From Bilabrum cf. latius (Eukaryota): 64,000 bases of DNA. The translations under genes and the position numbers were made by a program. The notes under the pieces are model-generated. The model saw only the letters and a list, made by a program, of their open reading frames with translations. It was not told where the DNA came from and searched no databases. The stretch spans positions 372,001 through 436,000 of the forward strand of contig OZ237740.1 in assembly GCA_965178125.1 (NCBI GenBank), written 5' to 3'. Positions 1 through 19,539 of the stretch are shown here, piece after piece. The first letter of the stretch is position 1; each line of letters opens with the position of its first letter.

Positions 1-273
1 AAATGGAACAACTGTTGCTGCGTTCGTGTTGCTGAAGTCAAGAGTTAGTTCAAAGGTTGCGGACATATACCCACGGCGACTGACACCGACCCCTGAGGGA
101 ATGGAAAGCGACCAATTCACGCCCGAGGAATAGTCACCGGCAGACCCTGAAGGTGCGTAGGAACGGAAGGTTCGGTTGGCATATCCAGTATCCACGGCGT
201 AGGGTTTGGCGGTGATGTCAAGGGAGGCGGGTTCAATCTTGACTGGCTCTAAAGCGTGAATATTGAGGCTCAT
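1..273 (-). CDS. Virophage major capsid protein, N-terminal 91 aa (runs off window)
   Basis: ATG at 273: MSLNIHALEPVKIEPASLDITAKPYAVDTGYANRTFRSYAPSGS...VNWSLSIPSGVGVSRRGYMSATFELTL. Resembles Sputnik-type MCP N-termini as I recall them, and lies directly downstream of the penton gene. Confidence 0.8.
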   Translation of the reverse strand, partial: MSLNIHALEPVKIEPASLDITAKPYAVDTGYANRTFRSYAPSGSAGDYSSGVNWSLSIPSGVGVSRRGYMSATFELTLDFSNTNAATVVPF

Positions 274-335
274 TGTCTGTTATACTATACACTCCGTTTT
301 AATTTCTGATATTCCTTTCACGAAATATCAAACAA

Positions 336-404
336 ATGTTTTCCAATGTTTTCCAATGTTTTCCAATGTTTTCCAATGTTTTCCAATGTTTTCCAATGCT
401 TTCC
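336..404 (+). repeat. 10-bp tandem repeat (TTTTCCAATG)n, about 6 copies
   Basis: Directly visible between the penton stop and the MCP start. Confidence 0.95.
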
Positions 405-411
405 TAAAGGA

Positions 412-1521
412 TTACCCGTGTCGGGAAAACTTAAATTTCACCGATGCGGAACCATGCCGAAGATATAGGGGGTGCGTCTCTCCATAGGAATCTTTCCAAT
501 ACAAATTAAACTGTAGCGTGTCAATACTAGAAGCGTTGAGAAGATCTATGGTGTGTTCTATCTTGGGCTGATACTGGAGAACGGCCTGGTTAATCATCTG
601 GGAATCATCTAGGACACAATCCATATCCACCAAAACACTTTCCGTGCCTCCTGTAGAACTAATGGACTAATTCGTGGAAAATCCAAAGGGAGTTTTGGCC
701 GATACCCCCTCGCTTCTCACTGGAAGACTGCTCGTTGTGAAAACGACTCCGCGGAACACCTGGAAATGTGCTAGACTGCCCCTATCCTGGGTCATTTTGA
801 GTCTGTAAGGGGACTAGGGTATAGTTTCCGTGTATGGGATTGGTGCGAATCCATCATCATCGTTTTCCACCAAATAGTTTGTGCCTAGGGATTTGAATAG
901 AACGGAGGAAAACACGTCTGGGTTCGTGTCTTGGATTCGCTGGACTGGGAAACCGCTTAAAAGTTCTCCCAATGGTTCATTCAATACCAATCTGTATTTC
1001 TGGGAAGGTTGTCCTTCGTGATAGTTGGAATCCGCGAACAGGGAAAACTTTCCATCGTCATAGGTAAGCGTTGGCGTGGTTGCTACTGCTGACTAGGGAA
1101 ACTTCTCCATGGTCTCATTAAAGAGACTGACAAAGTGTTCTATCGTGTATAAATAATAGTATCTTGTAAATGCCTGGGGGGACTACCAGCTCGGCTACGG
1201 TTCTGCGATTAACTAGGGTTTCCAAATGATGGGTTGCGTTCCAATCATGCTCCCGTCCTCCACGTCTTGGATGCTGATTCTGTAGATGGTTTGGTCTGGA
1301 TTCTTGCTGGAATTTGTGGAAAGGTCTATATCTATGTGGGGAATCCATACGGGAATTGTATTGGTGGATATGGTGAATCGTTGGACGCTCAATTTGTAAT
1401 CCTCCACATTTCCGCTTAAGATTGGCTTTTTCCTCACCTCGTTGTATTGGGCGGGCTGATAGGAGTCTTCATTATTGCGTATATTTGCGTTGATGTAGAA
1501 GTAGTCAGGTTGTCTAGACAT
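412..1521 (-). CDS. Virophage minor capsid (penton) protein, 369 aa with TAG=Gln
   Basis: Single frame with 6 in-frame TAG, ending TAA. Motifs RKKPIL..EDYKLSVQRF..TIPVWIP, YYYLYTIEHFVSLFN, VVFTTSSLPV, LYWKDSYGETHPLYL..ASVKFKF. Confidence 0.88.
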
Positions 1522-1728
1522 TTACTATACTATAACTTTTTAAGAAAAGAATAAGCAAAAGAGCGGAGCGCGCTTAAGCGCGAGCATCTTGACTAAAAAC
1601 AGTGAACGGGAGGGGTTTTCAACCCTTTGGGAAATGGTCGGAAGTCTTGGGAAATGGATAGGAAACACTTGGGAATTGCTAAAAAACATTCTAAAGATAT
1701 ACTAAGTGGTTTTTCTGAAAAAGTAACT

Positions 1729-2259
1729 ATGGACTACGCCCTAAGTGATACAGATGTAAGGAATTTGTGCGGGAATCCGCCCAGAGTGAAGGGGTTCAAG
1801 GCGTGTGCCGTCTCCATTATACCATATGAGAACTTGGAAAGGGTGGAAAGCATAGATAGAATCGTTTCACCGTCCAAGCCTTGTATTTTGTTGTATTAGG
1901 AAAGTCCTAATTCAGGTCATTGGGTTGCCTTGTTTCGTCGTGGGAAAACCCTGTGTTTCTTTGACCCCTACGGCGTGAAGCCCGATATGTAGCAGACTCT
2001 AATGAGTTCTAAAGTGCGGAAACGATTCTATGAAAACCCACACCTCGCTAGGCTCATGTATGAATGTCCTTACTCTATAGATTACAATTAGTATCCTTTC
2101 CAAGCCGATGGAGACGACATAGCAACATGTGGGAGACACTGCGTGGTCCGCCTTTGGAATCGTGGGAAAAGCACGGAAATGTATGGGAAATATGTGGAAA
2201 AGGTGTGTAAATCATAGGAAATAAATCCGGATGAATTAGTGTTCTTATTGACGACTTAA
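1729..2259 (+). CDS. Virophage maturation cysteine protease (adenain/Ulp1-like), 176 aa
   Basis: 4 TAG read through. Catalytic motifs GHWVAL, FFDPYG, FQ...TCGRHC; ends TAA. Confidence 0.93.
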
Positions 2260-2333
2260 AGCGTTTTCCATTTTCGTCAAAACTATATGCGTCCAGTGAA
2301 ACACTATTATCGTTATCTATACTATAGAAGGAA

Positions 2334-3245
2334 ATGCCCTCATTCACTTGGACTCACACTGTAGACACCATACCAATTGCGAAAGACACAGAATAGAACA
2401 GAATATTGTTTCTAGATAAAAGGGACGATCACGAGACGAAGTTTGGCGACAACGACGACATGACAGCGGAAGATTTAGAGCTCACGGAAGTTCTTAAGAA
2501 TAAAGTTTCAATGAAGCGTTTGGATTTACTCCGCAAACATTTAATCCAGTCTGTAGAACCTTTGGATAGCGATATGAAGCGGTTCTATGACTTGGCGTAG
2601 GAAAAGAAGCGAAAGGAAGTCAGTCTGCGGAAAGGACAATTTGACCCAATGCCGAGTGGGAAAGGGCGAGAAGTCATATATATTACCGCTCCAAGCGGTG
2701 CGGGTAAGTCTACATGGGTTTCCAAGTATTCCAGGAACTATTCCAGACTTTTCCCAGACCGAAAAATTGTCTTGTTCTCACGCTTGGAAGACGATGAGGT
2801 GTTAGACGCGATCCCGTCTCTCGTGAGAATCCAATTAGATGAAGAATTAGTAGAGAATCCCATTGACATTCACACCGAATTAAAGGACTGTCTGGTGATT
2901 CTAGACGATATTGACACGGTGAATGACAAGAAAATCCGTTTGGCATTGGAATAGTTGTAGGACGACTGTCTGTAGACCGGAAGGCACTCAAACACTTCTT
3001 GTTTGATTACTAGTCATTTAAGCACCAATTATAAGAGCACCAGGATAGTGTTAGCGGAATCCCACAAAGTGGTTATTTTTCCAAGGGCTTCCAGCGCTCA
3101 CTCTTTGCGTTATTTGTTGAATAAATATGTTGGACTTGAGAAACAAGACATTTCTAAAGTGATGAAATTACCGAGCCGTTGGGTGTGTATCCATAGGAAT
3201 TATCCTAGATATGTTTTAGGCGAGAGGTAGGCATACATAGTGTAA
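2334..3245 (+). CDS. FtsK-HerA family genome-packaging ATPase, 303 aa
   Basis: Walker A APSGAGKS, Walker B LVILDD, L(Q)TGRH..ITSH, C-terminal SRWVCIHRNYP. 6 TAG read through; ends TAA. Confidence 0.93.
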
Positions 3246-3252
3246 AAGCTTT

Positions 3253-3720
3253 TTAAAATAAATTTTGCTCCTTGACATATTTACTTGCTTGTGGAAGAGA
3301 CATGCCAGTCTGCTCCATCACCGCCTTTACTACTTTATTCCTTTGCTTCATTTTCTCACTTATTTTCCTCTTACGCCCTTCCGTGGGCTTTTGGGAAAAG
3401 CTTTTACGTTTTCCAGAACCGCCCAGAGATAATCCACCGATATTGGATAAATCCTCTACTGGGGTTCGGAGATTGTCAAAACTGCCGACATGAAAAGGGG
3501 TTTTCTCTTGCTTTCCAGCCAGTTTCTTCCAGATCTGTTTGCCCTTGGCGACTACACCTTGTCCCAAGGTTTTGAATATGAACTTCATCGCCTTGGCATC
3601 ATCCCTCCATTTTCCGCCTTGGAGATTGGGGGACACTTGGGCGATTCTCTCGTTGGCGTCCTTCTGTTTCTGCTACACTAACTATGCCGTCCGCTTCCTA
3701 ATGTATTCGTCAATATCCAT
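3253..3720 (-). CDS. Basic virophage protein (possible core protein), 155 aa
   Basis: MDIDEYIRKRTA(Q)LV(Q)...; several GG pairs; C-terminal RNKVVKAVMEQTGMSLPQASKYVKEQNLF helix motif that I recall from virophage proteins. Confidence 0.7.
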
Positions 3721-3930
3721 TATAGTATAGAATGAGCTTTTTTTAAAAGAAGTATGCTCTTTTATTGTTTTCCATTGCTTTCCATAGTTTTCCAAACATT
3801 TCCCTCTGTTTCCCACCCATTTCCAATCCACTTGGAAAACGCTTGGAAAACAAGATGCTCGGCCTTTGGCCTCCGCTCTTTCCATTCTTTTCAAAAGGAT
3901 CTTTATTAAAACGTAATCTTATAGTAAAGC

Positions 3931-5274
3931 ATGTCATTCCAATCACCAAACGTCCAAGCACTCATACAACAAGCCCTTGGAAAACAGCTAGACTGGGCGA
4001 AATTGTAGGATTTAGAAGCAAAAGACACCGCCGACCTGGAAAGCGAATACGCTTCCTATATTAGGTAGAAAAGTAAAGTAGAACGATTGAAAGAGAGTGG
4101 AAAATATGGAACGCCTTCTATGAGGAAGAAAGCGGACCAAACCAACTAGGAAATCGTGGGGAAATCCATCGCTGGGATCATGAAGGGAGTGGTTGAGGGA
4201 GAGCTGGGAAAAGCGCGGAAAGCGACGGAAGCTTTAAAACAGTTCTTGGGAAGCATCAACGTGAGTGGGGAAATGAAGGAATACTTGGGGAGACAAATTG
4301 TAAACATAGCGACCCTTGCGAGGAAGGGATACGCAGGCTTGCGTAAAGTCCCATCAGAAGATATGAAAATCTTGAATAACCTTAGAGAAATTGTTTAGAG
4401 TTCAGCAGGATAGCCGCATACTATACCACGAGGACTTCGTGAAACACCAGAACGGACTGTTGAGAGAACACCGCAGTTGCGAGAAGAAGAGGCAGAAAGG
4501 GACGACGAAGACAACGACGAAAGACCTGAGCCGACAAGAACGAACAGGCAATTGCGAACCATCCTAAAAGATATGGGAAAAGCAAATATTGATACAAGCC
4601 ATTTACTTCGTTTAAGAGACGCAAAAGACCAGCGACTAGCAGCCCGCATTTGGGACGCAAACAGAGACCAAGGGATAGAGTATGCTTTACAATTCGCCAG
4701 CGGCTCCACGGTATCACCAGCCAAAACACGAGCAAGACGACAAAAGGAAGCAGACATTCCACTGGAAGACCCGCCAGCGCAGCCTCAACCACAAAGAAAG
4801 TCCCGACCACAGAAAGAGATAGAGAAAGATATGGATAACGCATATCAGGCAGGATTCATTACAGAGGATGAAGTTAGACTATTCCAGCGAATTAAAGATT
4901 CCAGCGACAGGAAGGTGGTGCGAGCGTTTTGGGATAGGCATAAAAATTTACCGCTTAAACGAGCCATTCAAATTGTAGACCCGCAGTTGTGGACTGAAGA
5001 AGAGGCGGAAGTGAGACGAATGTAGCGGGAGGGACGGGCTCCAAGTTTCGCATCACCTATACAGAAAGGAGCCAAGAAAGGAGCCAAGAAGGGAGCCAGG
5101 AAAGGAGCCGTGCGAGGGCGCGGACGATTAAATCCATAGGAATCACACATTTTCCAGACCGCTAAGAATGTTTCCAAGAAGGTAAAGGGAGCGACCAAAG
5201 ACATTCAAGACTAGGTTGCGGACGAAGTGATTTCTCTACTTAAATCTACTGCTATACTATATAGCACAGAATGA
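3931..5274 (+). CDS. Hypothetical virophage protein, 447 aa, KGA(K/R) repeats near C-terminus
   Basis: Continuous frame with 8 TAG. Its TGA overlaps the next ATG (ATGA). Confidence 0.75.
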
Positions 5275-5483
5275 CGGAAGAATGGAGTTACAATAAATAC
5301 TATTACGAGAAAAATAAGGAACGCTTAAAGAAAAAGGTGGAGTGCGGGTGCGGTTCCAAAGTAGCTCGCTACAATTTGTAGCACCACAGGAAAACCAAGA
5401 AACACATGGCGTGGGAAACCGATGAAACCAAGCAGGAAATCCAACGACTCAAGGACGAGTTAAAATGCTTGAAGCATGAATAA
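5271..5483 (+). CDS. Small Zn-ribbon protein, 70 aa
   Basis: YYEKNKERLKKKVECGCGSKVARYNL(Q)HHRKTKKH: CxCG...H..TKKH motif common in virophages and giant viruses. Confidence 0.8.
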
Positions 5484-5509
5484 ATCTCCCAATATATATA
5501 TATTAACGG

Positions 5510-6685
5510 ATGTCCGTCTCTAATTTATTAGTGCCGAACACATATAGGTTGTATTGTCAGAGTATAACACCCGTTGAAGGTGGTGGAGGTGGCGGAACAC
5601 CGAGTCTATCAAGTGTTCTACAGGTGGGAAATGATGCTGGAAATACTACAATCACAAATGTTGCCCTTCCAGTCAATAACCAAGATGTTGCTACGAAGCA
5701 ATATGTGGATTCCACGAGTGGCGGAGGAGGTGGTGGAGGAGTAACACCAAACCTAACTGCTGTGCTGACACAAAGTGGAGACGCGGGAAACCTTACCATA
5801 TCAAATGTAAGGTCTCTGCGAATGGCAACAGGAGGCAACGGGGAAATCCAAACACCTTTTTCGGGGAACGCCTCTTTGGGATACACCCGTTAGACAGATG
5901 AAAGTGCTTTGTTTGAATACTATGCGAACTATGGAATGGGAAGTAAGAACCCTATGACACGACTTTATACAGGAAACGGGAACGAAGACGGAACAAACGC
6001 CGAATTCATGGTGTATGGGACAATTGAGTCTAACAAAGGGGTGATGGGGGGTATGACGCTCACAGGTGCGCTTGACGGAGATAAACAAAGAGAACAACCC
6101 ACCATCACATTTCAAACCACACCCAGTCCTCTCAAGAACCAAATAGAGGGAAGGAATACGAATGGAACTCCAGCAAACAACTTCATTCAATTCTGGATTG
6201 ATGATGGGAGTGGGAATCCGGTAGGCACGGCACAGATACGTGGAGATGGAACTATGTTCGTGTAGAATGGAGTTGTTCCTTTCACGGGAGCACACGTGGG
6301 AACGCTGGGAAGCGGTCCGAAACCAAAGATTGGGTAGGTTATGTCAGTAAGAACTGCGACGGTAAACGATGTGTCTAATTGCGAGTTTTCATTCAGGGTT
6401 TGCGATCACACAAGCGTTCCATTTGGAGTCTTTAGCGGAGAGGGAAAGGATGGGGAAATACGGGTTAATTCCGTGGGAGAAGGTGCTGTCCTTTGTCTGC
6501 GAGATGACAGCGTTCCTATTTTGGCAGGGGACTATCTGTCTATTTCCAGAACGAAAAAAGGATATGTGGAAAAGTCCAGGAGTTCTCAATTTTCTAAATG
6601 GGTCGTTGGGAAAGCAATCGTAGATGTTGAGTGGGACGACGAGGAGGAGGAAAAGTTAATTCCAGTGGTATATTATTGCGGATAA
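5510..6685 (+). CDS. Fibre/spike-like protein with C-terminal autocleaving chaperone-like domain, 391 aa
   Basis: Gly runs, repeated L..VL..G.DAGN units, DVATKQYVD, then FTGAH...VNSVGEG...AGDYL...VYYCG*. 3 TAG read through. Confidence 0.75.
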
Positions 6686-6719
6686 ACGAAAAAAGCGGAG
6701 ATTATAGTATATACACAAT

Positions 6720-7499
6720 ATGAGTCTTTCCAACATCCTTCAAGACAACAATTTTGCCCTCAAGTGTGCGTCTCTTACCGCCAGTCAGTCTCTGGAAACC
6801 CCCCAGAAAGTGTATGCGAGAGCATTAGAATAGACTAACAACGTTGGTGCCAATTGGATTTTTGATAGAAACAGTCCAGATGATAATGAAGCTATCATTT
6901 TCCAGAATCAACCTGAAGGACTTCACAAGTCCGTGAGTGTTTACGTGGGGTAGAACAGCGCTGCTGCGCCCATCAAAATGACATCTGCGTATTTCACAAA
7001 CGGGAACCCGCACACAGGAACGATTAGTGTGAATGGGTAGGTCATTTCTGATTCTATGGGAAATTTCACAGGGGCGCACAGAGGAACTCTCCGGAAAGAG
7101 GACGAAGCATATGTTAAGAAGGGAATGGTTGTGGGGATTTCCAAAGCTTCCGTGGACGAGGAACGCCTGGAACGTTGTGAGTTTGAGTTTAAGATTGCCG
7201 ACGCTGGAGATGTGCCGTTTGGAGTCTTTTCCAAGATAGATGAGACCGATGGGAAAGCAGTGGTATTTGGTCTGGGAGAGGGTGGGATTCGTGTCGCGCA
7301 GGAGGGATCAAGTCCGCCTAAAGCAGGAGATTATCTAGAAGTGTCGGGAAAACACTCTGGGTATGCCGTAACGGCTAAGGAGCAAATCCTAGGGAAATCC
7401 ACCGTCGCCAAAGTTCTCGCAGGTGTTTCCTTCTCCAAGTCCAAGAGTGACGGGGACATCACATACACCATCGCACCCGTGTAGTATCTGTGTGGATAA
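6720..7499 (+). CDS. Fibre/spike-like protein paralog, 259 aa
   Basis: MSLSNILQDNNFALKCASLT...FTGAH...GLGEGG...AGDYL...V(Q)YLCG*. 4 TAG read through. Confidence 0.75.
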
Positions 7500-7533
7500 A
7501 CGAAAAAAGAAGACACTATAGTATACAGGCAAT

Positions 7534-8058
7534 ATGAGTCTTTCCAACATCCTTCATGACAACAGTTTCGCCCTCAAGTGTGCTTCTCTCACGACTGAAG
7601 CAATCTATGGACTACAAGGAAAGGATTTGACGATTCAAACCACAAGGGCGGATTCTGGCGACGATGGATATGCTGTGGTGCTGAAAGCGTCAAATTCTAC
7701 CACTACTGAAACGTGTGATATTCGGTTTGGAAATGGCGAGCTTGGAACAGCCTCGGCTCGTATTTACGCAAGGCAAGGCGGACAAACTCAACAAGATGAC
7801 ATAGATGGGTCGTATTTCCTTGGTGGGTATTGTGTTCTTTCCAAAGGGGGGGCGGGTCTTGGTCTTCCAGTAAGGACTGCGACCTAGATTGGAGACTCCA
7901 CGGATACTTGTAATAAAACAGGTCGTCCAGAAGACACAAAACGAGCGGGTGTGCTTCTGTTTAATTCTACAGATTCTATTGTGATGGTTTCCGTAGGTGA
8001 TGACTCTACGAGTGCTTGGAAGGAAGTGGGTGGAACAACCACCATAACACCATCATGA
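7534..8058 (+). CDS. Short fibre-like protein, 174 aa
   Basis: Shares the N-terminus MSLSNILHDNSFALKCASLT with the preceding gene; different C-terminus. 1 TAG; ends TGA. Confidence 0.7.
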
Positions 8059-8152
8059 TGTATCTCCAAAGAACCCTAAGGGCTTTTTGTAGAATACCTA
8101 TCCGGTAGTTCAATACAATCACTATTGTAAGGAAATCATTCTATTGACTCCT

Positions 8153-9997
8153 TCACTATAGGAACACCTTTTTCTTCGCGTGAGTAATCTCACAAGCCCC
8201 TTGAGCCTCTAATTTCCACTCTCCAAGGTTTTCCGAGAGCTTCAAGGGGATTTCCACATCGCTCACAAATCCGTCCGTATTCACATAGTGGATTCTATCT
8301 AGGTGCGGTTCTATCACCTTGGAAAGTTTCCGCCGACCAAAAGCTGTGAGGAACGGGCCCAGACGAGCATAGCAAGTTTTATACGTGTATGTTTGTGTCG
8401 TTAGAATGCCTTTTACCCTTCTTCCACCGTCCTGAATGAAGGCGTCTTTAAGCGTTCTGAAGTCCACAACTTCGTCGTCGCTGGAAATTGTCTAAACTAC
8501 CTAGTTTTTCTAGCACAACGCACCCCACACGGAGTTAAGTAGTTGTTTTGCTGTTTTAAATCCTTTCTTTTTATATCCAAAGAGTCGCTCCACCAAACCC
8601 TTGAAGAGACTAACTGCCTTAATACGCTTGTCCTTTTCGTAGATGAGGGCGTTCGCCTGACCGTCCTGAATGATGGAAAAGGTCGCCCCTGTTTCCTACG
8701 CCCTTACTATATCGTGGTGAGTCCAATAATTGTTTTTGCGTGGCTGGATAAGCTTGGGATTTAGGTGTTCCACCTTTACCCTGTAAATCCCGAATTTCCA
8801 ACCGAAGTCCTCTGGGGTCTGGGAAAGAGTCTGGAAATCTCCGGAAAGGATTGGAAACTACATCTATGACTTCAACATGCTTGGATAGAAGCTGTTAATG
8901 TCATATTGATATGCTTTCTCCAGTTTCGTGTCGTTGTTCGCCCAGTTCAGTCCGCCCCCTGATGCCTTGGAAATCCACTCCGCCTCTTTGCGCCCCAAAG
9001 GCTCGGCTGGGAAAAGCTTGGAAAACTTGGAAAAGTAATGCTTTACGTAGTAGGAAGGTCTATATCCATATTTAGATAGATCCATATACCCTCCAGTCTC
9101 TTGAGAGAGTGTCTCGGCGTCCTCGTGGATTCGCCTCCAGGTCGGTTCTAGGTCTTCCTCTACAGAGACTTTCCAAAGACTCTTTGTTTGTATATCTGTT
9201 CTTAATCGTGATTCAATATGTCTAGTTGCTCCGTCATACATGATATATTCGCTTTCCGCCTTTTTCCAGTAGGTGATTAGGCGAACTGACTCCTTCGTGG
9301 GAATACACATTAAATCTTTCTGGGATCCTGGGGAAATGAACTCGTAATGTCCGTTTGTAAGGGAGATGTTCGCCAAGGGGTCGTAAGACTTTCCAGATGT
9401 GTAGGAAAAGTCTCCAGTCAGATGAATACGGATCTTCAGATAATCCTCTACCTCGGGAATTCTCTTGTAGTGGATTGGTTCGCTCCGTCCTAGGTTCAGT
9501 TGGGACTTTAGCTGGGCGGGAGAAATCCTATGGAAACCACTTTTATACTTGCCATTTACCTTCTTGTTTCCTCTAAATCCTACTTGGAAGGGAAAAGCCT
9601 TCTTTAAGGCGTTATACAGACAGTCGTTATTCTCGTCCTTTCCGCCCCTCGGATTGTCCTTGGGAAGCAAAAGAAGTTCAAATGTGTTTAGTCTGCGGTG
9701 TTCCTATTCATCTACATCCTCGTCTTCATATCCCTTCCACAGAGAGGTAGTTTCCTTCAAGTCTTCCGTGGTGATCCAAGCACTCCTTGTCCGCCACCCT
9801 TCTTCCACAAAATTGAGGTTTATCTTGAACTTGTATCCGTCAAAGGGATTCTCTCCGTCCTCGTCGTAGTCCTTGATAAAATCCATCACATCCTTTACAG
9901 TGATTAGCTCGTCCGCATGGAACCTAACGCTCCAAATTGGAACGCCGTTGAGTCTCAAGTTGGTCCTCTCGGGTTCGCCGAAATCAATCTCAACCAT
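8153..9997 (-). CDS. polB: Protein-primed family B DNA polymerase (compact), 614 aa
   Basis: Motifs SGGG, YDINSFYP, KQLLNSVWG, YARLGPFLTAFGR, YVNTDG. 8 TAG read through; ends TGA. Confidence 0.88.
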
Positions 9998-10050
9998 TCT
10001 AGAGTATATAATATACTATAGACTACCAAATTATACTTAATGTATGAGCC

Positions 10051-11733
10051 TCACGCCTCGTCAATTTTACACAGAGACAGTTTCAGAGATTTCCCTCGCT
10101 TTCCATGTGGTTTTCCTTTGGGTTTTGGTGGGTTTTCCATCATCCATGCGGTGATTGCTACACATGACTCGGCCGAGAGTTTCCTCTATGTTTTCCTGTG
10201 GAAAAGCTAATTGTCGTCCATTTCCCTCTCCAGTTCCAACTCTTCTATGCGTTCCGTTTGCTCCTGTAGTTTCTTCTACATTTCCTATAGTTGTTCTCGT
10301 AGCAGTTCCACCTCGGTCTTGGCTTTCTCTACCTCTGCTTCTTGGCGGAGAGCTTTGAACTTCTTCCGAAACCCTTCCAATAGGTCTTCGTGCTTAACAT
10401 TGAACTCTTGTTTTCTCTGTGAGTTCATCGTGGAATACACACCTACTTCCGCCAACTGTTCCTTAATCTTAGGCGTGGAGAGGTTCTTGATTTGTCCCTT
10501 CAGTTCGTCCTTTAGGTAGTTGCGGAAGGCCATCACGGAAATGTGGAAATCTTTTCTCTCGTCCAACCACTCTTCCTTTAGCGTCCGCAGGATAGGGTGT
10601 GCCCCTTGTAAAATCCCCTTATGGAAATTCTAGGATTTCGGAGCGTATAGTCCCTTGAACTCGGGTGAGTCGTCGTAAACTTTCGCGAGGTATAGGAAGA
10701 ACGCCCTCGCCACCTCTTTGCTCTCCGTTGCTTCCTTGAGTTTCTTAAAGTATTCCTTGTCGCCTTTCCTGGATGTGTTTACATCCAACACGCAATATCT
10801 GCGGATTTCCTCTGTAATTTTGATGGGTGCGTCGTTCGTGTCAATGATGAGGTTGAAGGTGTTGGGACGGCTCTCGGTCTTGACGAATTTCTCATTACAG
10901 GAAAAGGTCTTCTCGGTGATTAGATTGCGTAGGGTCGCCTACATAGCGTTCCATCTAGTATTGGAAGCTTTTGGAATCTCGTTGAAGTTCACAAGTAGTT
11001 TTCCATCTAGGATAGAGTTGAAGGCATCGGGCTGAAGCATGGCGTTCGTGAGCGTCTGGAGCGTCAGGGTGTATCCAAGGAGTTTTCTCATAAGGAACGT
11101 AATGATGATAGATTTACCAGTTCCCTACGGAGACTTTAGATACAGGGCGGTCTGAAGTTTTTCCCCGCCTACAATCACGTGTGCCAGCCACTTCATCACG
11201 AAGTCAAACTGGGTGTCGTCCTCGCTCGTCCAGACCTTGTGGATATGTTCGGAAATACGAATCACGCCTTCCCGTGCGTCTTCAGGCACGTCTTCTAGGT
11301 TTCCGCAGTTTTCCCGAGTCATCAGGGGTTTTCCCATGAGGTTAATCGTTTGCTTCTCGTAGTCCACAGTGGGTGCGTTGAATCGTCTCACCACCCGAAA
11401 AACATCTGTGTTCTCGTTAAAGAACCAATCACGAGCAGACCAATCCTTCACCTTCCTATTGTTTACCATTCGGTAGATACAGTGTCCGCCAATTAGGTAG
11501 TTCTCGCTGATGTTTCGGTTCGCCAAGAACTACCAAACTGGTTTCTAGGGATTCTCGTCGGAAATGTTCTAGCGGTTCAGTTCATCCCCCTAGAGGAAAT
11601 ACACGCCTCCACCTTGGTCGTGGGTGCGGTAGAAATATTGCTGAATGTATTTGATACAATCCTCCTGATTTCCAGTATCACAGAGTTGCTTGAGGGTTCT
11701 GGCGGAAAAGGCAACGGTTGGCATCTGACACAT
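10051..11733 (-). CDS. Superfamily 3 (D5-like) helicase, 560 aa
   Basis: WLAHVI...ALYLKSP(TAG)GTGKS Walker A, LLVNFNE, NLIIDTN, RRYCVLD; coiled-coil tail. 11 TAG read through. Confidence 0.9.
10061..10068 (-). promoter_or_regulatory. AAAATTGA giant-virus early promoter motif upstream of polB
   Basis: Exact octamer about 64 bp upstream of the polB ATG; same flanking architecture as the helicase promoter. Confidence 0.7.
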
Positions 11734-11785
11734 TTTTCTGTTGGTTATACTATATACTACCAAAATATACTTAAGTGCTGACGCG

Positions 11786-11793
11786 TCAATTTT
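11786..11793 (-). promoter_or_regulatory. AAAATTGA giant-virus early promoter motif upstream of helicase
   Basis: Exact octamer about 53 bp upstream of the ATG at 11733. Confidence 0.7.
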
Positions 11794-11946
11794 CCAGAGA
11801 GTCATCGGAGACATTTCCAGAGATTTCCAAGAGGTTTCCAGAGATTTCCAAGAGATTTCCATAGCTTTCCAACGATTGGAAAAATATAGGTAGTGCGTTA
11901 GTCTTAAGGTATGGAATTTTCCCCACTCATCTTCATTGTTCGCCAC

Positions 11947-13026
11947 TTATGTCAGGTCTATTGGGGCTATCCCAAACTCCGCTGGAAGTTGCTTTTTGGC
12001 GTCTTCTAGGGTTTCCCACGTCCAATCCTTTTCGTTTGGAAGACCGTCCCATTCCACTTGGACTCTCGTTGGTTCTCGGGTATGGACTTTCTTCATATCC
12101 TTTCTGCGGATTGCCTTGGTGTTGTGGAGCTCATCGTCGTCAATTATCTATAGTTCTTCCTTTGTGTAGGCTACTTTGTGTTTCTAATCCACGACATACA
12201 AAGGGGGTTGCCCTGGTCGCAGAAGCACCTTGGTAATTTGTCGCTCCGTCGGGTCGTAGCGTAAATCACTGGCTCTAAATGAACCCATGAGTTTCTTGGA
12301 GAGTTTGTAGGCCTCTCTAGGTTCTTCCAATGGAATCCTAACAATTGTTCCCTTTTCCAAGATATCGCAAGCCTTTCCCCTACAGTGGGTCGCTCCAAAG
12401 TCAGTCGTGGGAATTGGTGGGTTTTCTTTGAGTTTCTCTTTCTGGAATTCGTTGTAATCCTCAACAATCGTAGGGACTAAATCCAACCATCGTCGCTCCA
12501 CTTTTCCCTTGGCTATTTCCTCTACATTCTGGACGGAATTGATGACGATTCCAAACAGCTTGTTAAGGTTTTCCACCACGGCCTGTTGTTTGTGTCGCCC
12601 TGGCTTGTTTCGGCGCACGTAAATAGGCCTTTCCTATTCTTGTAGGTGTCTTGCCAATTCGTTAAATTCATTTCCGTTGTCTATTTCTAGCCTCACGGTG
12701 GGTTGCTAGACATTTCCCCGCATGAATATCTAGAGAGCTTTTTCATAGGTTTCTTTCTGGGTTTTCTTCTATAGCGGTTCTGCGTCTATTAATTTGGTGT
12801 GTAAATCCACAGCAGTTAAAAGGTATTTATATCCTTGGTCGTTCGGCAATTGGAGTAAATCCATCTGAACGACTGCGTTTGGCTGCGGGACGTTCACCTT
12901 GGGTCTGTTCTTGCCCTTGGGTTTCTTTGGGCGTTTCATTAAATTGCGGATTCTAGAGTCCTGAGGTATGTGAACCCCTTGGAGAACATATTGGAGAACA
13001 TTTGGGTATTCCTTAATGATTTCCAT
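11947..13026 (-). CDS. Retroviral-type (rve, DDE) integrase with C-terminal chromodomain-like region, 359 aa
   Basis: QMDLL..GYKYLLTAVD, IDNGNEF, QAVVENLN; tail VQVEWDGLPNEKDWTWE. 6 TAG read through; ends TAA. Confidence 0.92.
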
Positions 13027-13039
13027 TTACTATAAGGGT

Positions 13040-13654
13040 CGGTAGGGAAACCGTGGGAAAGTCTTGGGAAAAGGTGGGATACCTTGGGGAACACCTGGGA
13101 TTTCTTTGAGAAAGGTGGGATACCTTGGGGAACACCTGGGATTTCTTTGGAAAAGGTGGGATGCTGTAGGAAATTAATTGGAAACCGAGGGGAAACCTTG
13201 GGAAAGTCTTGGGAACCTTCGCTTCGGAGAAAGACCAGACGTTCCCTCGGCTCCCGTCATGACTCTAGATGGAGACCGATGTAGAAACTCTTCAGTAAGT
13301 CTAAAATTGAGTTTTGCCCTGCGAAGTAGGGACAAATTCGTTCCTTCGGCTCCCGTATCCCTCTAACAGCAAACACAGGGATGTTTTTGGGAGGCCGTTG
13401 GATTCTTCAAATTTCTTCTGACACTTTTATAAAAACATCTCTGTCATTGCTGTAGGAGAAATATAGGAGTAGTAATAAAAGATAAACTTTAAATTCCCCT
13501 ACTTTGTAGGAGATAAAAAGTAGTCTGTTTTATGAGACATGGACTATGAGACACGCTACGGAATTCTACTAGGAGACTTAAGAGGAGTAGAGAGGCGCGG
13601 AGCGTCTCCTCTATATTGCTGTGGAGCCCCGCTCATCACACTTGACCCCCCCCC
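13040..13654. repeat. Non-coding, repeat-rich terminal region (candidate TIR) including a 39-bp direct duplication
   Basis: AAAGGTGGGATACCTTGGGGAACACCTGGGATTTCTTTG occurs twice at about 13070-13150; the region ends in a C9 run. Confidence 0.5.
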
Positions 13655-13919
13655 AATTCATATTCTTAACATTAGAAACATCCCAAGTATTTAAAGGTTC
13701 ATTAAAATACACCCTATGTTTGAATACATAATTCATATTTTTAATGAATGTAGTTATTATCCTTTCGGGCTTATATTTAGTAAGTAAATCTTTTAGTTGC
13801 TTTCTGGTTTTGACTATGTAGTAGGTTTGACCTTCAAATGTATAACCTTTTCTAGCTCTATAATAATTAATTGGTTGTGTAGCTTTCAAGGTTCCATTTT
13901 CCCATTTGAATTCTTCCAT
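13655..13919 (-). pseudogene. DUF285/BspA-like repeat protein, interrupted
   Basis: FNEPLNTWDVSNVKNMN repeat breaks off into GGGGGGGGG at 13654. Confidence 0.7.
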
Positions 13920-14639
13920 TCTGTATATACATATAATAAATATATTTTTTAAGTCAATTTAAACGCTCACTATAATATTAAATATATTAATATTATTATA
14001 TTAAAATTCAATTAATTAAAATTATCCTCTATCTCGTCTCTCTCCTCGTTATCCAATACCCATTTTAATCTTGAAGGGTGCCACGCTCTAGAAATTAATT
14101 CTTCTTTATATTTTTTTGTTGTCTCAATTATCTTATCTTTTCTATTTTTCCAATACCTGTTATCAGTTAGCGTATATATTATGTTCTCTGATATAGTCTC
14201 AAAACGTTTTACTTTCTGTTTATGGTTCTGGATTATTGCTTTAATCTCGGGAGAACGTGAAACCCGCTCATTTATTAAACTCTGAATACTCCTCCTATTT
14301 CCATAATATCTTAAATGTTCTATTTCACTATTAGTTAATCGGTTTTCTTTTACTTTTCTCATTTTAGATATAGTATCCTATTTGATAATCCGTAATTTTA
14401 TTTTCTAATACTTTTTTAATACAAGGTATAAAATCTACTCTATAGCTTCATCCTCATTATCATATAAATCACATAGATAATTATATCGTTCCCAATGGAC
14501 TCGCTCAGCTTTTCTAAGAAATGTTTTAGACGGTCTAAGCTCCTTTCTCAAACTCATAGATTTTTTGGTTAATAGTTCTAAGAAATCCATTCTGTATATA
14601 CCTATAATAAATATATTTTTTAAGTCAATTTAAACGCTC
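13917..14639 (-). promoter_or_regulatory. 52-bp promoter duplicated upstream of both AT-rich ORFs (13917-13968, 14588-14639)
   Basis: GAGCGTTTAAATTGACTTAAAAAATATATTTATTATA(T/G)GTATATACAGAATG, near-identical in both copies. Confidence 0.85.
14012..14590 (-). CDS. Hypothetical viral protein, 192 aa with TAG=Gln
   Basis: ATG at 14590 is in frame through 3 TAG. C-terminal KEELISRAWHPSRL motif of a kind frequent in giant-virus proteins. Confidence 0.7.
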
Positions 14640-15085
14640 TATAACAATTTAAAAATAAAAGCGCGTTTGTTCCATTTGTGAAGGTATAAGCGAGGATAAG
14701 GGGGTATAATGAAGGTAGTTTAGAAGGTTGAATAATGGAGTCCCATAAAGTGATGGAACTTTTGGCTAGAAAATGGCTAGAGTCCCATAACACCTTCACA
14801 AGAGGGCTACATCCACGTTTTGCTAAATAATACATATACTAATACGCAATTTGTGGATATGGTCATCGTATAGAGTTTTATATATAATTGATTTTATATA
14901 ATTAGAAGGATAAAGCAGTTATATGAAGTAGCAGTATGAAGAGGTTCACCTTGACTTTTGGAGCGACTAGCTCCAAAAGGAGTGGAACGGACTGAAGAGC
15001 TTTAGCTCTGATGGACTGGAACTATTGATGATGTTAATCATCCTTAACCGAAGGGAATAAATTTATTTATTACCGTAGCGGGGGG

Positions 15086-16215
15086 CGTCCGGCAAGGTGG
15101 TCGCCACGATCAAGCTTGAACATAAAGGCGACTCGTACTACGATCGGTTCTATATTCCCCGATCTGGCATATTTACCTTCATCGACGTGCGGGTATACCA
15201 CGTGAACCTGCACAAACTCGAAGCAACCGAGCTGCCTGGCTCGAAAGGCCACTGCTACAAGCCTGGGCTACTCGACCGCGCAACTGGTAACCAGCTGCGC
15301 CCATGGGCCAAGTTCGAGATGTACTCCTACTCGGCTACTACTGGCGAGTGGACCACCATCGAGGCGGCAGAGGTACAGGCCACCGTTCCGATCGAATCGG
15401 AGCTTCTGGAAGGCAAGTCGCTCCTCACCCGAGTCCACAAGACGCTGACGGGGCCCATCAGGGGCATGTCCGTCCACAAGGAGCGTCTCGTTGGATGCGG
15501 AGCACCAGGACACTACATCAGGCTGCAGGACGGCCGAATCGCAGCATGGACCGATCACGGGGAAGGGTTCGGTGGTCTGACCATGTGGGACATGGCGACC
15601 AAGAAGGCCCGCTTCGCCGCTGACTGCTTCCTGCTGGAAGGCAATCCAAAATGCGAGGACTGGGAAGAGATCATGGAGGACAATGGATATGCTGAAGGCA
15701 CCCTTGTGCAGGTGGGTCCCTCCATGGCGGCCCTGCTGCTGCAGCAGTACAAGTACGGCATCGTGCTCATCGACGTTGATCGCATGGAGCAGGTGGGGCT
15801 GGCCGCGGAGGGCGAGCACATCCACCTGGCCGAGGCCGTGCATGTGGAGGGCATGGACCATGCCATGCTGGTGGCTGGGACCGTGAGTCCTGGTAAAGTG
15901 CAGGTCTGGTGTCCTGTAGATGGTGACGCAGGTTGGTACAAGAAGCAGCAGGAGGTTGAGCTCGGCGAGAAGGTGACGGGAGTGACGGCTCTGAAGGCAA
16001 TTCCGGGGGGCAACCTGCTCGTGTCTGCGCGGCAAGGCAGGTTCAACAACCGATTTAGTGATGACCACCCCTTCAAGTGCTTCGAGCTGAAGGGTGTCAA
16101 GGTAGAGCTGTCGGCTTCGACTGAGACCATCGATGATGAGACTGCTACCGCCGGTGTAAGCGGGAGTGTGATGCTCCAGGCGATGGAGGCGCATGCCGAA
16201 TCTGGTTCTAGCTGA
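15086..16215 (+). pseudogene. Beta-propeller-like gene A, copy 1 (5' part displaced by viral insertion)
   Basis: Resumes at CGTCCGGCAAGGTGG; nearly identical to copy 4, 17098 bp downstream. Confidence 0.85.
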
Positions 16216-16319
16216 TCCTGGATCAGTGCATTCGGACCACGAAATTGTGGATGGATTCTGCAGACTCTGTGACTACACTACAATCCGATCAAACCACAAA
16301 TAGACTCTGCACTGGACCA

Positions 16320-16820
16320 CGCACTCACAGCATCCTGCCCCCAGCCCAATCCAGGATTCAAAAGCGACCTCCCATCATGGATGCTGCAGTGCACCACGCA
16401 CTCACAGCACCCTGCCCCCAGCCCATCTCAAAAGCGACCTCCCATCATGGATGCTGCAGTGCACCACGCACTCGCAGCACCCTGCCCCCAGCCCAATTCA
16501 AAAGCGACCTCCCATCACGGATGCTGCAGTGCACCACGCACTCACAGCACCCTGCCCCCAGCCCATCTCAAAAGCGACCTCCCATCATGGATGCTGCAGT
16601 GCACAACGCACTCGCAGCACCCTGCCCCCAGCCCAATTCAAAAGCGACCTCCCAGCGAGGATGCTGCAGTGCACCACGCACTCACAGCACCCTGCCCCCA
16701 GCCCATCTCAAAAGCGACCTCCCAGCGAGGATGCTGCAGTGCACAACGCACTCGCAGCACCCTGCCCCCAGCCCAATTCAAAAGCGACCTCCCATCACGG
16801 ATGCTGCAGTGCACCACACA
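16320..16820 (+). repeat. 70-bp minisatellite, about 7 units
   Basis: Unit CAGCACCCTGCCCCCAGCCCA(T/A)(C/T)TCAAAAGCGACCTCCCATCA(T/C)GGATGCTGCAGTGCACCACGCACTC(A/G). Confidence 0.95.
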
Positions 16821-16863
16821 ATCATAGTGTCCAACCCGGCCCATCCAGTATTGATGTGACCTC

Positions 16864-19539
16864 TCACTTGCACGTGGCATACACAGTGGACACACCACGT
16901 CCCTGAATGTCCAGCTCATAGTCTTGTTCCGGTACTCCGACGGCCAGGGCGCGCCTGGATGCATCGTAGCGAGCTTGCTCTTTCCCTCCCAGCCTCGAGT
17001 CGTACGATGAGAACATACCCGAGTCGAGGCTTCTGTGCTCCCTCTCTGCTTTAGCATACTCTGCACGAGCCGCCTCCAGCCCGCGCCTGGCATCATCAGC
17101 CTCACTGGCCTTCGTTGGAAGGTAATGGTCCAGCCACTTCATACCAGTGCCACTCGTCGCCATCACCTGCAGGCACATGTGAGTGCTGGTGTGACGGTGC
17201 TTCTGGGCGGTAGGGAATGGCTTCAGGTCCGACTCGACGTGGAATGGGTGTCCGAAGTTCACACCGAGGACGGCGCGCATCGCATTCATGCCGAAGCTTC
17301 TGGTCTCGGCCACAGACTCCAGCCGAGGATACAGACTGCTGCCGCGACTCCCGCTGTTGCAAGCTGATGGCAATTGCATCAACACTGGGACTGGCTGGAA
17401 GTCGTCAGGCTCGGCATACAGAGTCCAAGTGCCTGCCACAGGGAGCCTCTCGCCGATTGTAGTAGCGTCCTGCCCTGGCTCAGATCCCAATGCCGATGTG
17501 CCAGCGTCTGCAAACATCTTCAGTGGGGCCACACGATCCACCGACACTTCCAGAAGCATTGGTGGTTTCGCATCAGTCATCGCGCTCTTGTGCTTGTCAC
17601 CCCAGCTCAGCTGAATGCCGCGCGGATACTGCATCGGTGCATCATCCAGCTGACAAGACGTCAAGCCTCGCCGGAGCCCGCTCAGCCCATACGACTGCAG
17701 CTTGAACGTGCTAGCCACATCGGCCGGATCCACCTTGCGGTAGATCACGTTGACTCCCCCGATGCTGTCTTCTCGCTACTTCGCACTCGCACTCGGACTC
17801 AGCGATGCATCAGGCGACCCCTCCTTGTCGTGCTGCAGCTTGCCAGCCGTGTACACGCCGGCCTCAGACCGAAGCAAGCTGCCCTCCACCGCGCGGAAGA
17901 GCGGCTTCGTCTTGCACTTGTCGCTCCCGATGCTGTGCAGGCCACTCCACACCAGCTTCGCACCTGTTGCCTCCGGCAGCATGATCTCCACAGGACGAAC
18001 GTATCCCACTTCCAGCGGCGAGCAGAACGAGGACGCCAGACACACGTGCCTGGCCTGACACAGACCGTCCGGCTCTGAGTCGCCTTCGACACCGCACCTA
18101 GGCAGCGGGTGCCTGCACGACCCTCCCTCCTGCTCCGCCTGTTTGCGGTACTTGTCCGGGCAGTAGTCGCCAGTGCCCAGGATCGCATGCAGGGCGCGCT
18201 TCCGGATCGATTCGAGCTTAGTGAGCCGGCACGTCTCGCCCAGCAGCGCCTCTTTCCCCTCGGGCAGCGGCCTGCCGTACTTGTGCTCGAATGACGTGCA
18301 CTCCAGGCTAGACGGCGGCTGGTATCGAGTGCTTCCGCGCTTGCCGCACGCCAGGTGGATGCCGCTGCCATCGCCCCCAGCGGACCCATCAGCCCCTGAC
18401 TCGCCAGAGACGTACGACATGTAGTGCGACACGGAGCTGAGGCACGCCCTGCACGCGTCTGTCGCCTGCTGGTGGTACTCGTTGACGATCTTGGTGGTGG
18501 TGCTGCCGTCCGCATGCCTGTGCTCGTGCTCTGACTCGAACTTGTTCACGAGAGCAAACTCAGAGTCGTTCAGGTGGCAGGACTTGCGGAAGGCCTCGTG
18601 CTTCCTGGCCATCTCGTCGCAGTCCTGCAGCGGGTACGGCTTGGCCTCTGGGAATCCATTCGCGCTGCGCTCGTTGTGGATCTTGATCAGGTAGTTGAGC
18701 ACCTCCTCGCAGTCTGCCTTGGGCAGGCCCGTCTCGGCCGACAGCCGCAGCAGCGTGCTTGCACCGTGCGACGCAAACACGTTGTGCGAGGCCTGCCGAA
18801 TGCGCTCCTGCATGGCGGCTTCGATGAGGAACTTCCTGGCCTTGGCGGCTTGCAGCACCTGGGATAGTGGGATGTCCTTGAGCTCGTTGCCGTCGGCGTC
18901 CAGCATCTAGGTATCTCCGGACATGAAGCACATCCTCCCGACCGCTTCCATGCTCTCCACCCTGCCGCGGCTCGACCGCTTGCCTGCCTCCATCGCTATG
19001 CGAGTGCACGCCTCCCAGTCGCCGAAGAGAGCCAGGCCGTGCAGGGCCCAGAACTTCATGTCCACCACGGCCGGCATCGTGTCCACCGTGGTGGCCCAGC
19101 GCTTGAGCCCAGCCATCATCGTCTCGCGGTCCTGCGTGGCGCTGACGAGGCTGGGCTCGCCTCCCCTGACGCTCACCGTGACGTCTGTGGCGAGCTGAGC
19201 AGTGCGCCGAGACTTGCCGGACGACCACGCCGCGCTGAGATCCAGTCCTGCCTTACCCGCACTGGAGGCCAGCTCTGCCAGCTGCAGGGCCCGTTGGATG
19301 GTGGGCCCGTCCTCGCGGATGGAGCTGGTCTTGTACGAGGTGTCCACGACTTCCTCCCGCCCGTCCACGATGCGGGTGTACTTGGTGTTGGCGGTGGTGG
19401 TGTGGTTGGAGCGAGACGCCGTGAGGATGTCACCGACTGAGATGGACTCTGCCGGGTCGAAGCTGGCCTGCAGGGAGAGGGCGGTGTCGGTGTGCTCGTC
19501 CGTGGAGAGCTTCTCGGAGCTGAACTTGCGGGTGACGGG
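16864..19539 (-). pseudogene. MACPF-like gene B, copy 1 (5'-truncated)
   Basis: Open with TAG=Gln. Homology to copy 4 stops at about 19537, before the MACPF signature. Confidence 0.8.

Follow-up and report, generated by a model that had tools for sequence, protein, structure and literature searches.

Virophages of the Sputnik type have genomes of ~15–19 kb and encode a major capsid protein (MCP), a penton protein, a packaging ATPase, and a cysteine protease (3J26; PF21915, PF22031, and PF21507). Mavirus and the endogenous mavirus-like elements of Cafeteria burkhardae encode a protein-primed family B DNA polymerase (pPolB), an rve integrase, an FtsK/HerA ATPase, a protease, a penton, and an MCP, carry a promoter-like motif, and integrate into protist nuclear genomes. 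Integrated virophages can act as an inherited defense in the system of virophage, giant virus, and protist. Reactivation by a giant virus has been shown for mavirus. The element described here was found in a stretch of 64,000 nucleotides from Bilabrum cf. latius (assembly GCA_965178125.1, contig OZ237740.1, positions 372,001 to 436,000 of the forward strand), hereafter the window. With high probability, a GC-rich eukaryote that uses UAG for glutamine (Gln) and UAA and UGA as stops carries a virophage in its nuclear DNA, and positions 1 to ~15083 of the window are the right-hand ~15 kb of that integrated genome. An endogenous virophage had been proposed in the first-pass annotation, and this identification stands: the element is a virophage with a Sputnik-type capsid, as indicated by a penton recognized by Pfam, an MCP assigned through a related metagenome contig (L003), the fold of the ATPase, and a conserved protease, and its right junction lies inside a host gene. 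The four morphogenesis proteins are homologous to those of Sputnik, and the complement of pPolB, integrase, ATPase, protease, penton, and MCP, the nuclear integration, and the promoter-like motif are the same as in mavirus, although the capsid proteins are much nearer to Sputnik than to mavirus and the code is non-standard. The element thus pairs a Sputnik-type morphogenesis module with a replication and integration module of mavirus/Polinton type (pPolB, superfamily-3 helicase, and rve integrase).

Reassignment of TAG to Gln is otherwise known from crAss-like and Lak phages, which recode mainly their late genes, carry their own suppressor tRNA, and infect hosts with the standard code. Codon and amino acid are identical in the element, and in both cases standard gene callers shred the genes. 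In contrast to these phages, the element recodes all of its genes, carries no tRNA, and resides in a host with the same code. Both phage groups are mentioned as TAG=Gln (code 15) phages in the available part of PMC11502894. Endogenous elements of the polinton-like virus (PLV) type in Streblomastix strix use the TAA/TAG=Gln code of their host, which is taken as a sign of long association in the available part of Bellas et al. (2023, PMC10120064). Like the element, they are small dsDNA viruses from the Polinton/virophage realm that are integrated in a host and use its variant code, but they use code 6 (TAA and TAG) and have PLV-type MCPs of the Metamonada group, while the element uses TAG only and has a Sputnik-type capsid (PMC10120064, same part). 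A further difference is that related genomes with terminal repeats are found in metagenomes for the clade of the element. Among giant viruses, some metagenome-assembled genomes of the GVMAGs V2 catalogue (2026) need alternative codes, such as an Imitervirales IM_12 genome under code 6, and all giant-virus isolates come from standard-code hosts, according to the available part of the catalogue paper (PMC13524828). The recoded genomes in that part are giant viruses without a known host, whereas the element is a virophage physically linked to a host genome of the same code; the words “virophage” and “code 15” do not occur there (PMC13524828). No virophage with reassigned stop codons was found described in a full-text literature search, which did not cover subscription journals; the supplements of PMC10120064 and PMC13524828 may list more variant-code elements. 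Endogenous virophages are known, and a code with UAG=Gln only, common to a host and an environmental clade, was not found described within this search.

GC content is 42–47% in the left ~15 kb of the window, against 52–63% between 16 and 62 kb. Under the standard code, the longest open reading frame (ORF) in 1–15000 does not exceed 268 aa, and with TAG read through, the left ~15 kb resolves into a compact series of long frames. Start codons were refined by an upstream motif and by the point where relatives begin to align, and the ORFs at 7534–8058 and 13578–13919 were added. The final set comprises 13 complete genes and the first 91 codons of the MCP gene (14 frames, 4203 codons), and 84% of the element stretch is coding. 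The first-pass annotation had listed 12 complete genes and the MCP start; the MCP start was kept, and the number of complete genes was corrected to 13 with the gene at 7534–8058 and two tail genes at 13578–13919 and 14012–14590. Its right boundary at 13654 was ~1.4 kb short of the end at ~15083.

In-frame TAG codons, previously estimated at about 60, numbered 61 in the 4050 codons of the 12 frames first listed, where TAA and TGA occurred only as terminators (8 and 3 times, respectively). The other two frames of the same 12 genes contained all three stops in similar numbers. In the final 14 frames, 63 TAG, 85 CAA, and 63 CAG codons were counted, and no internal TAA or TGA, so that TAG makes up 30% of the Gln codons of the element (63/211). 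Every complete gene has at least one TAG, early-type and late-type genes alike. The 13 complete genes end in TAA (nine) or TGA (four) and never in TAG, and their ends coincide with those of their orthologues; TAA and TGA still terminate in the element. The two TAG sites quoted in the first-pass annotation are real: that in the helicase Walker A site (LKSP-TAG-GTGKS) is residue 246 of the long frame, and that in the penton (IWKP-TAG-LIAE) is residue 103. The penton, ATPase, pPolB, helicase, integrase, and first fiber-like gene each align to their L003 orthologue nearly full length and in one piece, and frameshifts are therefore absent, as had been stated.

The residue encoded by TAG was estimated with a substitution table taken from the ordinary codons of the same alignments, in which the residue best explaining the partners of TAG in both directions was sought against two of the relatives (L003 and L005). 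The codon-level log-likelihood was −307.1 for Gln, −367.8 for glutamate (Glu), and −389.9 for Lys, which makes Gln the maximum-likelihood assignment, ahead of Glu by ~60 log-likelihood units. Opposite the 53 window TAGs that aligned to L003, TAG was found 9 times, CAA 8 times, and CAG 6 times, with the other 30 spread over 12 other residues; Gln codons (14) outnumbered Glu codons (3). Of 65 window TAGs, 20 had Gln opposite them, which equals the rate of conservation of ordinary CAA and CAG codons (51/153). At conserved columns, Gln was found in 2/2 sequences at penton residue 103 and in 8/10 at pPolB residue 496. The TAG column of the helicase Walker A site contained Gln 29, Glu 25, Lys 3, and Gly 1 times in an alignment of 58 of the 147 non-fragment helicase matches. 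Gln is therefore the best-fitting residue and tryptophan is excluded, where the first-pass annotation had named random residues or mostly Trp opposite TAG as the outcome speaking against its proposal. Full-length database proteins of the same clade, 85–98% identical to L003 genes (P0164 and P0003), have Gln opposite 12 of 13 TAGs; these were not counted as evidence, because the gene caller of that collection may have applied code 15.

The host flank (15086–62020) consists of tandem 5–6 kb units with a MACPF gene and a 496-aa gene, two non-LTR reverse transcriptase ORFs, and two long unknown ORFs, with MACPF and RVT_1 as the Pfam domains. Eleven flank ORFs of 304–1457 codons are open only with TAG as a sense codon, and their 10,225 in-frame codons include 49 TAG and no TAA or TGA, compared with 104 TAG, 66 TAA, and 474 TGA off frame. 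TAG accounts for 11% of the Gln codons in these ORFs (49/457). Between host paralogues, TAG faces TAG 12 times, CAG 11 times, CAA twice, and other codons 20 times. No tRNA genes were detected by ARAGORN in the 64-kb window or in the contigs L001–L006. Since the flank ORFs also need TAG as sense, the code belongs to the cell and the element follows it, in agreement with the non-standard nuclear code that had been proposed for the host.

Relatives of the element were recovered by a profile scan of metagenome contigs, which yielded five colinear contigs (L001–L005) of 45–75% protein identity. A scan of viral contigs with the penton as a single protein found nothing, and a profile scan found only one contig, L006. 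Each of the five relatives has 10–32 in-frame TAG and no TAA or TGA in the aligned genes. Within genes, the in-frame stops of the relatives are all TAG; the one TAA, present in L001–L004, lies opposite codon 15 of the long protease frame, ahead of the true start. L003 is a contig of 15,030 bp with 12 genes, 53 TAG in 4454 codons, and TGA and TAA as terminators six times each. It has inverted repeats of 24–39 nt near both ends (1–39/14816–14854 and 1–24/14890–14913), a uniform GC content of 39–49%, and no host-like flank, and it therefore looks like a near-complete linear genome of ~15 kb.

The wider virophages do not share this code. Sputnik and 80 catalogued relatives use TAG as a stop, while the clade of the element reads it as Gln: in the 80 IMG/VR virophage loci found by the ATPase profile (L007–L086), no TAG was present in 56,871 aligned codons, and only one locus had a single TAA. 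The clade also has a pPolB and an rve integrase, homologues of which were not found in the 80 loci at E ≤ 1e-8. An ATPase tree was calculated from 86 sequences over a region of 203 aa (FastTree, LG+gamma, midpoint root), leaving out L002, which is without an ATPase. The window, L001, L003, L004, and L005 formed one clade with a support of 0.988, and the standard-code locus L007 was its sister with a weak support of 0.335. Only 11 TAG positions of the window face TAG in at least one relative. As few TAG positions are common to the relatives, TAG codons turn over, which indicates a long evolution under this code. On this evidence, the recoding is old and lineage-wide and not peculiar to this insert, in a clade of at least six genomes (the element and five metagenome contigs). 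The earlier proposal of a virophage adapted to UAG=Gln was thus right about the code in use, but the clade-wide recoding with differing TAG positions does not fit a recent event.

The MCP gene is represented by its first 91 codons (1–273, minus strand), with the remainder to the left of the window, and is 75% identical over 80–83 aa to the MCP N-termini of L001–L003. The 91-aa part alone has no Pfam match. The full L003 MCP (587 aa) matches Sputnik_MCP_1st (PF21915) with 91.7 bits and MCP_V20_C (PF22031) with 91.3 bits, and it matches Sputnik V20 (PDB 3J26_A) with an E-value of 2.8e-34 and the mavirus MCP (6G43) with 6.1e-07. As the window contains only 91 aa of it, the MCP was assigned through this orthologue, and by that route it is a double jelly-roll MCP of the V20 family. 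The penton (minor capsid) gene (412–1521, minus strand; 369 aa, 6 TAG) matches the Sputnik V18/19 model PF21507 with 48.3 bits (cut-off 27) and the Sputnik penton chain PDB 3J26_N with an E-value of 4.3e-11, and it is 45–64% identical to L001–L005. Both capsid proteins are therefore recognized by virophage models, directly for the penton and via L003 for the MCP, as the first-pass annotation had anticipated.

For the ATPase and the protease, for which profile models had also been suggested as a check, Pfam gave only sub-threshold AAA matches and no family, respectively, and their assignment follows from the fold of the former and from homologues of the latter in 42 of 81 catalogued virophage loci. 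The FtsK/HerA-type packaging ATPase (2334–3245, plus strand; 303 aa, 6 TAG) was modelled with a pLDDT of 74. In a fold search, its best matches included Sputnik V3 (E 5.4e-25), the packaging ATPase of Yellowstone Lake virophage 5 (5e-24), and the FtsK-HerA ATPase of mavirus (2.4e-14), as well as an adintovirus FtsK-like protein. It is 35–47% identical to the ATPase of 81/81 virophage loci. The cysteine protease (1729–2259, plus strand; 176 aa, 4 TAG) starts at M26 of a longer frame (1654–2259). Its homologues are 27–40% identical (best E 8.5e-29) and conserve GHW, FDxYG, Q, and TCGR, and residues H89, D104, Q150, and C159 in long-frame numbering are invariant among the recoded relatives. From the order of these motifs, we take the protease to belong to clan CE (Adenain/Ulp1-like). 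No homologue of it was found in the 12-kb piece of L006. Profile matches of the protease to WD40 proteins in the PDB were rejected as spurious (0 significant stretches).

The replication and integration genes are all encoded on the minus strand. The pPolB gene (8153–9997; 614 aa, 8 TAG) matches DNA_pol_B_2 (PF03175) with 35.0 bits (cut-off 25.8) and is 55% identical to that of L003 in a single alignment over residues 4–613. The superfamily-3 (D5/VapE-like) helicase gene (10051–11733; 560 aa, 11 TAG, one of them in Walker A) matches DUF5906 with 58.8 bits and a VapE-like model with 27.6 bits, and it has 7780 matches in the protein library at E ≤ 0.001. Its start was placed at M44 of a longer frame; homologues align from residue ~45–50, and the upstream motif lies 21 nt before M44. 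The rve-type integrase gene (11947–13026; 359 aa, 6 TAG) matches PF00665 with 41.3 bits (cut-off 32.6) and is 49% identical to that of L003 over 346 aa. The integrase gene shares its reading frame with the helicase gene, from which it is split by its single TAA (11947–11949); the helicase frame is open up to this stop. A 50%-identity protein library contains three entries of 71–114 aa (P0015, P0030, and P0031) that are 98–100% identical to pieces of the element helicase. They look like pieces cut by a standard-code gene caller. Searches with the MCP and pPolB against a GenBank phage collection, which apparently holds no virophages, gave no match.

The integration is marked by the step in GC content and by a sharp junction with a repeated host gene at 15083–15086, inside a truncated copy of the 496-aa gene. 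The sequence that begins at 15086 and continues to the right has 99.8% identity to host unit 4 (from 32184) and 88% to unit 2. Leftwards, units 2–4 run on into the 5′ portion of the 496-aa gene; the junction lacks this portion. As homology to the host repeat resumes at ~15083–15086 without that 5′ portion, the element ends at ~15083 inside this gene copy. No inverted repeats of at least 40 nt were found in the 64-kb window, and the terminal ACTGACTT repeat of L003 is absent from it. The last ~55 nt of the element (15030–15085, reverse complement) align ungapped to positions ~40–95 of L003 with about two thirds identity, a weak match counted by hand. This stretch lies just inside the left terminal repeat of L003, and the two may represent a homologous terminus. 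Parts of 9500–19000 are contained in 12 sequencing runs, five of which, from two studies, contain 0.60–0.80 of the sampled words; this is compatible with the join, without proving it, and runs with a small share were disregarded. No RNA run was among the runs containing part of this region.

Several observations weigh against an integrated virophage that shares the code UAG=Gln with its host, and they are considered here together with the explanations that they would favor. CAG-to-TAG is the commonest nonsense mutation and a single transition, and TAG is often found opposite CAG in relatives and paralogues, as would be the case if a decaying provirophage of the standard code had acquired its TAGs as nonsense mutations (e.g., C-to-T at CAG). 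Premature stops are also frequent in endogenous viral elements of protist assemblies, according to the available part of PMC10120064. However, the 4203 codons contain 63 TAG and no TAA or TGA, despite 85 CAA against 63 CAG codons. A C-to-T change would turn CAA into TAA just as it turns CAG into TAG, yet TAA is lacking, which excludes decay as the source of the TAGs. There are no frameshifts and no gene ending in TAG, CAA is no rarer than CAG opposite the TAGs in L003 (8 vs 6), and the same pattern recurs, mostly at other positions, in five relatives, one of them with terminal repeats. Decay under the standard code is accordingly considered scarcely credible. A sense codon for another residue, be it Glu (the reading of peritrich ciliates), Lys, Leu, Tyr, or Trp, would be in line with the comparison to distant standard-code virophages (21–47% identity). 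There, the mean Gln fraction at 21 TAG sites was 0.10, compared with 0.17 at true Gln sites, 0.087 at Glu sites, and 0.04 at all other sites, and the summed BLOSUM62 score at TAG sites tied Glu (0.4) with Gln (−0.4). With L005 alone, Gln led Glu by just 6.4 log units, and Glu occupies 25 of 58 sequences at the Walker A site and 24 of 42 at protease site 57. The same distant virophages exclude Leu, Tyr, and Trp, whose sites are unlike TAG sites and have 40–45% self-conservation, but they leave Glu. The test on close relatives decides against Glu and Lys by the likelihoods given above, as do the 14 Gln against 3 Glu codons in L003, and a residue other than Gln is judged very improbable. The flank is composed of repeated genes and retrotransposons without a conserved housekeeping gene; for this reason, and given the frequency of CAG-to-TAG mutation, the case for TAG=Gln in the host is carried mainly by the total lack of TAA and TGA in its long frames. 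Were the host a standard-code organism, the recoding would be the work of the virus itself, with a suppressor tRNA from the virophage or its helper, as is known for recoded phages. An ochre-suppressor tRNA has been described in one virophage clade, where it is read as a hint of reassignment in the host (PMC6905037, available part). The slim chance left to recoding of this kind is even smaller than that of another residue, since neither the window nor L001–L006 has a tRNA gene, each of the 13 complete genes contains TAG, whether for replication or for the capsid, and the 11 high-GC flank ORFs, including those for the retrotransposon reverse transcriptase and MACPF, need TAG as sense.

The dependence on a giant virus and the join to host DNA are weighed in the same way. 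pPolB and rve integrase are the hallmark pair of Polintons, the 80 IMG/VR loci have no homologues of either at E ≤ 1e-8, and among the relatives of the pPolB are fungal-genome proteins. A helper virus was not found, and a scan with the fiber genes yielded nothing but L087, a virophage of the standard code. A self-synthesizing element of Polinton/Maverick type, or a free-standing polinton-like virus, that does not depend on a giant virus is therefore given some weight, although it remains unlikely. Against it, the MCP and penton match Sputnik-specific Pfam models, the MCP is nearer to Sputnik than to mavirus (2.8e-34 vs 6.1e-07), and virophages are also the group of the ATPase and protease. The pair of pPolB and rve integrase is found in mavirus as well, whose status as a virophage is proven, and almost all genes have a short conserved motif immediately before them, an arrangement known from virophages that rely on their helpers' promoters. 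A further point against the proposed reading is the protease, which matches no Pfam family, with only WD40-like noise at E ≤ 10, and has an AlphaFold model too poor for a fold search (pLDDT 49.7). With regard to the join, the window contains only the right end of the element, and the transition at 15083 is that of the assembly. A chimera, in which a free virophage contig was misjoined to host DNA, is conceivable in a region that is hard to assemble, where the adjoining host unit is 99.8% identical to a unit 17 kb away. Such an artefact is nevertheless quite improbable: no repeat that could cause a false join is common to both sides, TAG is a sense codon on both sides, the element encodes an integrase, and five runs from two studies contain 0.60–0.80 of the sampled words across the junction, which is no proof.

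For a virophage integrated in a UAG=Gln host, the following working is proposed. Host ribosomes and a host tRNA would read UAG as Gln in the mRNAs of the element, its polymerase and helicase would replicate the genome, and the rve integrase would insert it into host DNA. The element would depend on a helper giant virus that itself tolerates UAG=Gln; the helper may be of Imitervirales type, and the element may be active at present. A long evolution under the code of the host would have brought ~30% of its Gln codons to TAG. More tentatively, and as a proposal that we would rather doubt than assert, the insert could be the cell-side anchor of a system of protist, giant virus, and virophage that operates entirely on UAG=Gln. 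The clade would then circulate as free particles, as the terminal repeats of L003 would suggest, with the host-less TAG=Gln giant viruses of metagenomes as helpers, and the code would act as a host-range barrier that has kept this community of viruses apart from standard-code hosts. If this were true, the integrated copy would be the first physical link of such recoded viruses to a host genome. A recoded virophage clade in a host of the same code extends the virophage and giant-virus world into variant-code eukaryotes, opens a route to hosts and helpers of recoded giant viruses, and provides a natural test of code change as a barrier isolating a host from its viruses. Standard pipelines miss such elements, as seen from the helicase pieces of 71–114 aa in the library and from none of the 80 catalogued relatives being recoded.

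A near-palindromic motif, TATAGTA(T/A)A, is located 7–23 nt upstream of 11 of the 14 start codons, including 16 nt upstream of the MCP ATG. TTATAGTA occurs six times in the window, against 0.40 expected, and five of the six occurrences are inside the element. In L003, the motif stands directly upstream of the starts of the integrase, helicase, polymerase, fiber, g3931, g3253, ATPase, and penton genes. Genes of Sputnik and mavirus carry the promoter of their helper, and by analogy the TATAGTA motif may drive transcription, possibly by the polymerase of a helper giant virus. AAATTGA, the core of the Imitervirales early promoter, was dropped as a lead; it is not enriched, as its 9 occurrences compare with 6.5 expected and a count of 9 was also reached in 19 of 100 shuffles. 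A 10-nt unit (AATGTTTTCC) is repeated in seven tandem copies between the MCP and penton genes (335–404), and similar GGAAAAC/TTGGAAAA units are found again before further genes (3764–3851 and 9006–9035). A 41-nt tandem repeat with 2.5 copies (13062–13162) precedes the integrase gene, and a 21-nt unit is repeated three times in tandem upstream of the helicase gene (11809–11872).

Three paralogous genes on the plus strand (5510–6685, 6720–7499, and 7534–8058; 3, 4, and 1 TAG, respectively) have no Pfam family and presumably act as fiber or spike genes. Their common N-terminus of ~20 aa (MSxSNxL...L.C.S.T) also heads, as a stretch of 22 aa (7108–7173 and 8243–8308), two genes of L087 (33% GC) and may be a conserved anchor for exchangeable fiber or spike proteins of virophages. 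A small basic protein of 155 aa (3253–3720, minus strand; 2 TAG) starts at M56 of the frame 3253–3885, with the motif 7 nt upstream of its ATG. It has no Pfam family and is 36–38% identical to syntenic ORFs in L001, L003, L004, and L005. A 447-aa protein (3931–5274, plus strand; 8 TAG), also without a Pfam family, is 55% identical to the L001/L003 orthologue in its N-terminal 164 aa. The two tail genes on the minus strand encode a DUF285(-like) protein of 113 aa (13578–13919; 1 TAG) and a protein of 192 aa (14012–14590; 3 TAG). They have no counterpart in L001–L005 and are assigned to the element because of their low GC content, in-frame TAGs, and TATAG-type motif. Both are preceded by near-identical blocks of ~55 nt (13920–14011 and 14591–14650), as if a promoter had been duplicated.

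At the right edge of the window, a second insert of low GC content (62021–64000, 41%) breaks into another copy of the 496-aa gene of the host; its site differs from that of the element and corresponds to ~20591 of unit 2. No ORF above ~90 aa is present in it, and TTATAGTA occurs once, at 63214. A second copy of the virophage was rejected for this insert, since neither blastn nor tblastx matched it to the element or to L001–L006. The host array itself (15086–37300) is made up of four units of 5–6 kb, each with a MACPF-domain gene of 895–1105 codons and a 496-aa gene, and each holding 70-nt tandem repeats (e.g., 16270–16919 and 33368–34017), with 99.8% identity between units 1 and 4 over 1415 nt. 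Two non-LTR retrotransposon ORFs with RVT_1 domains (49143–53135 and 55622–59773, minus strand) share 38% aa identity and have 7 and 10 in-frame TAG, respectively, and no TAA or TGA, and host mobile elements therefore follow the TAG-sense code as well. A fragment at 59920–61254 is 99% identical to the second of them. Further high-GC host DNA at 38687–39790 holds ~13–16 tandem copies of a 67-nt unit, most of which are 99% identical.

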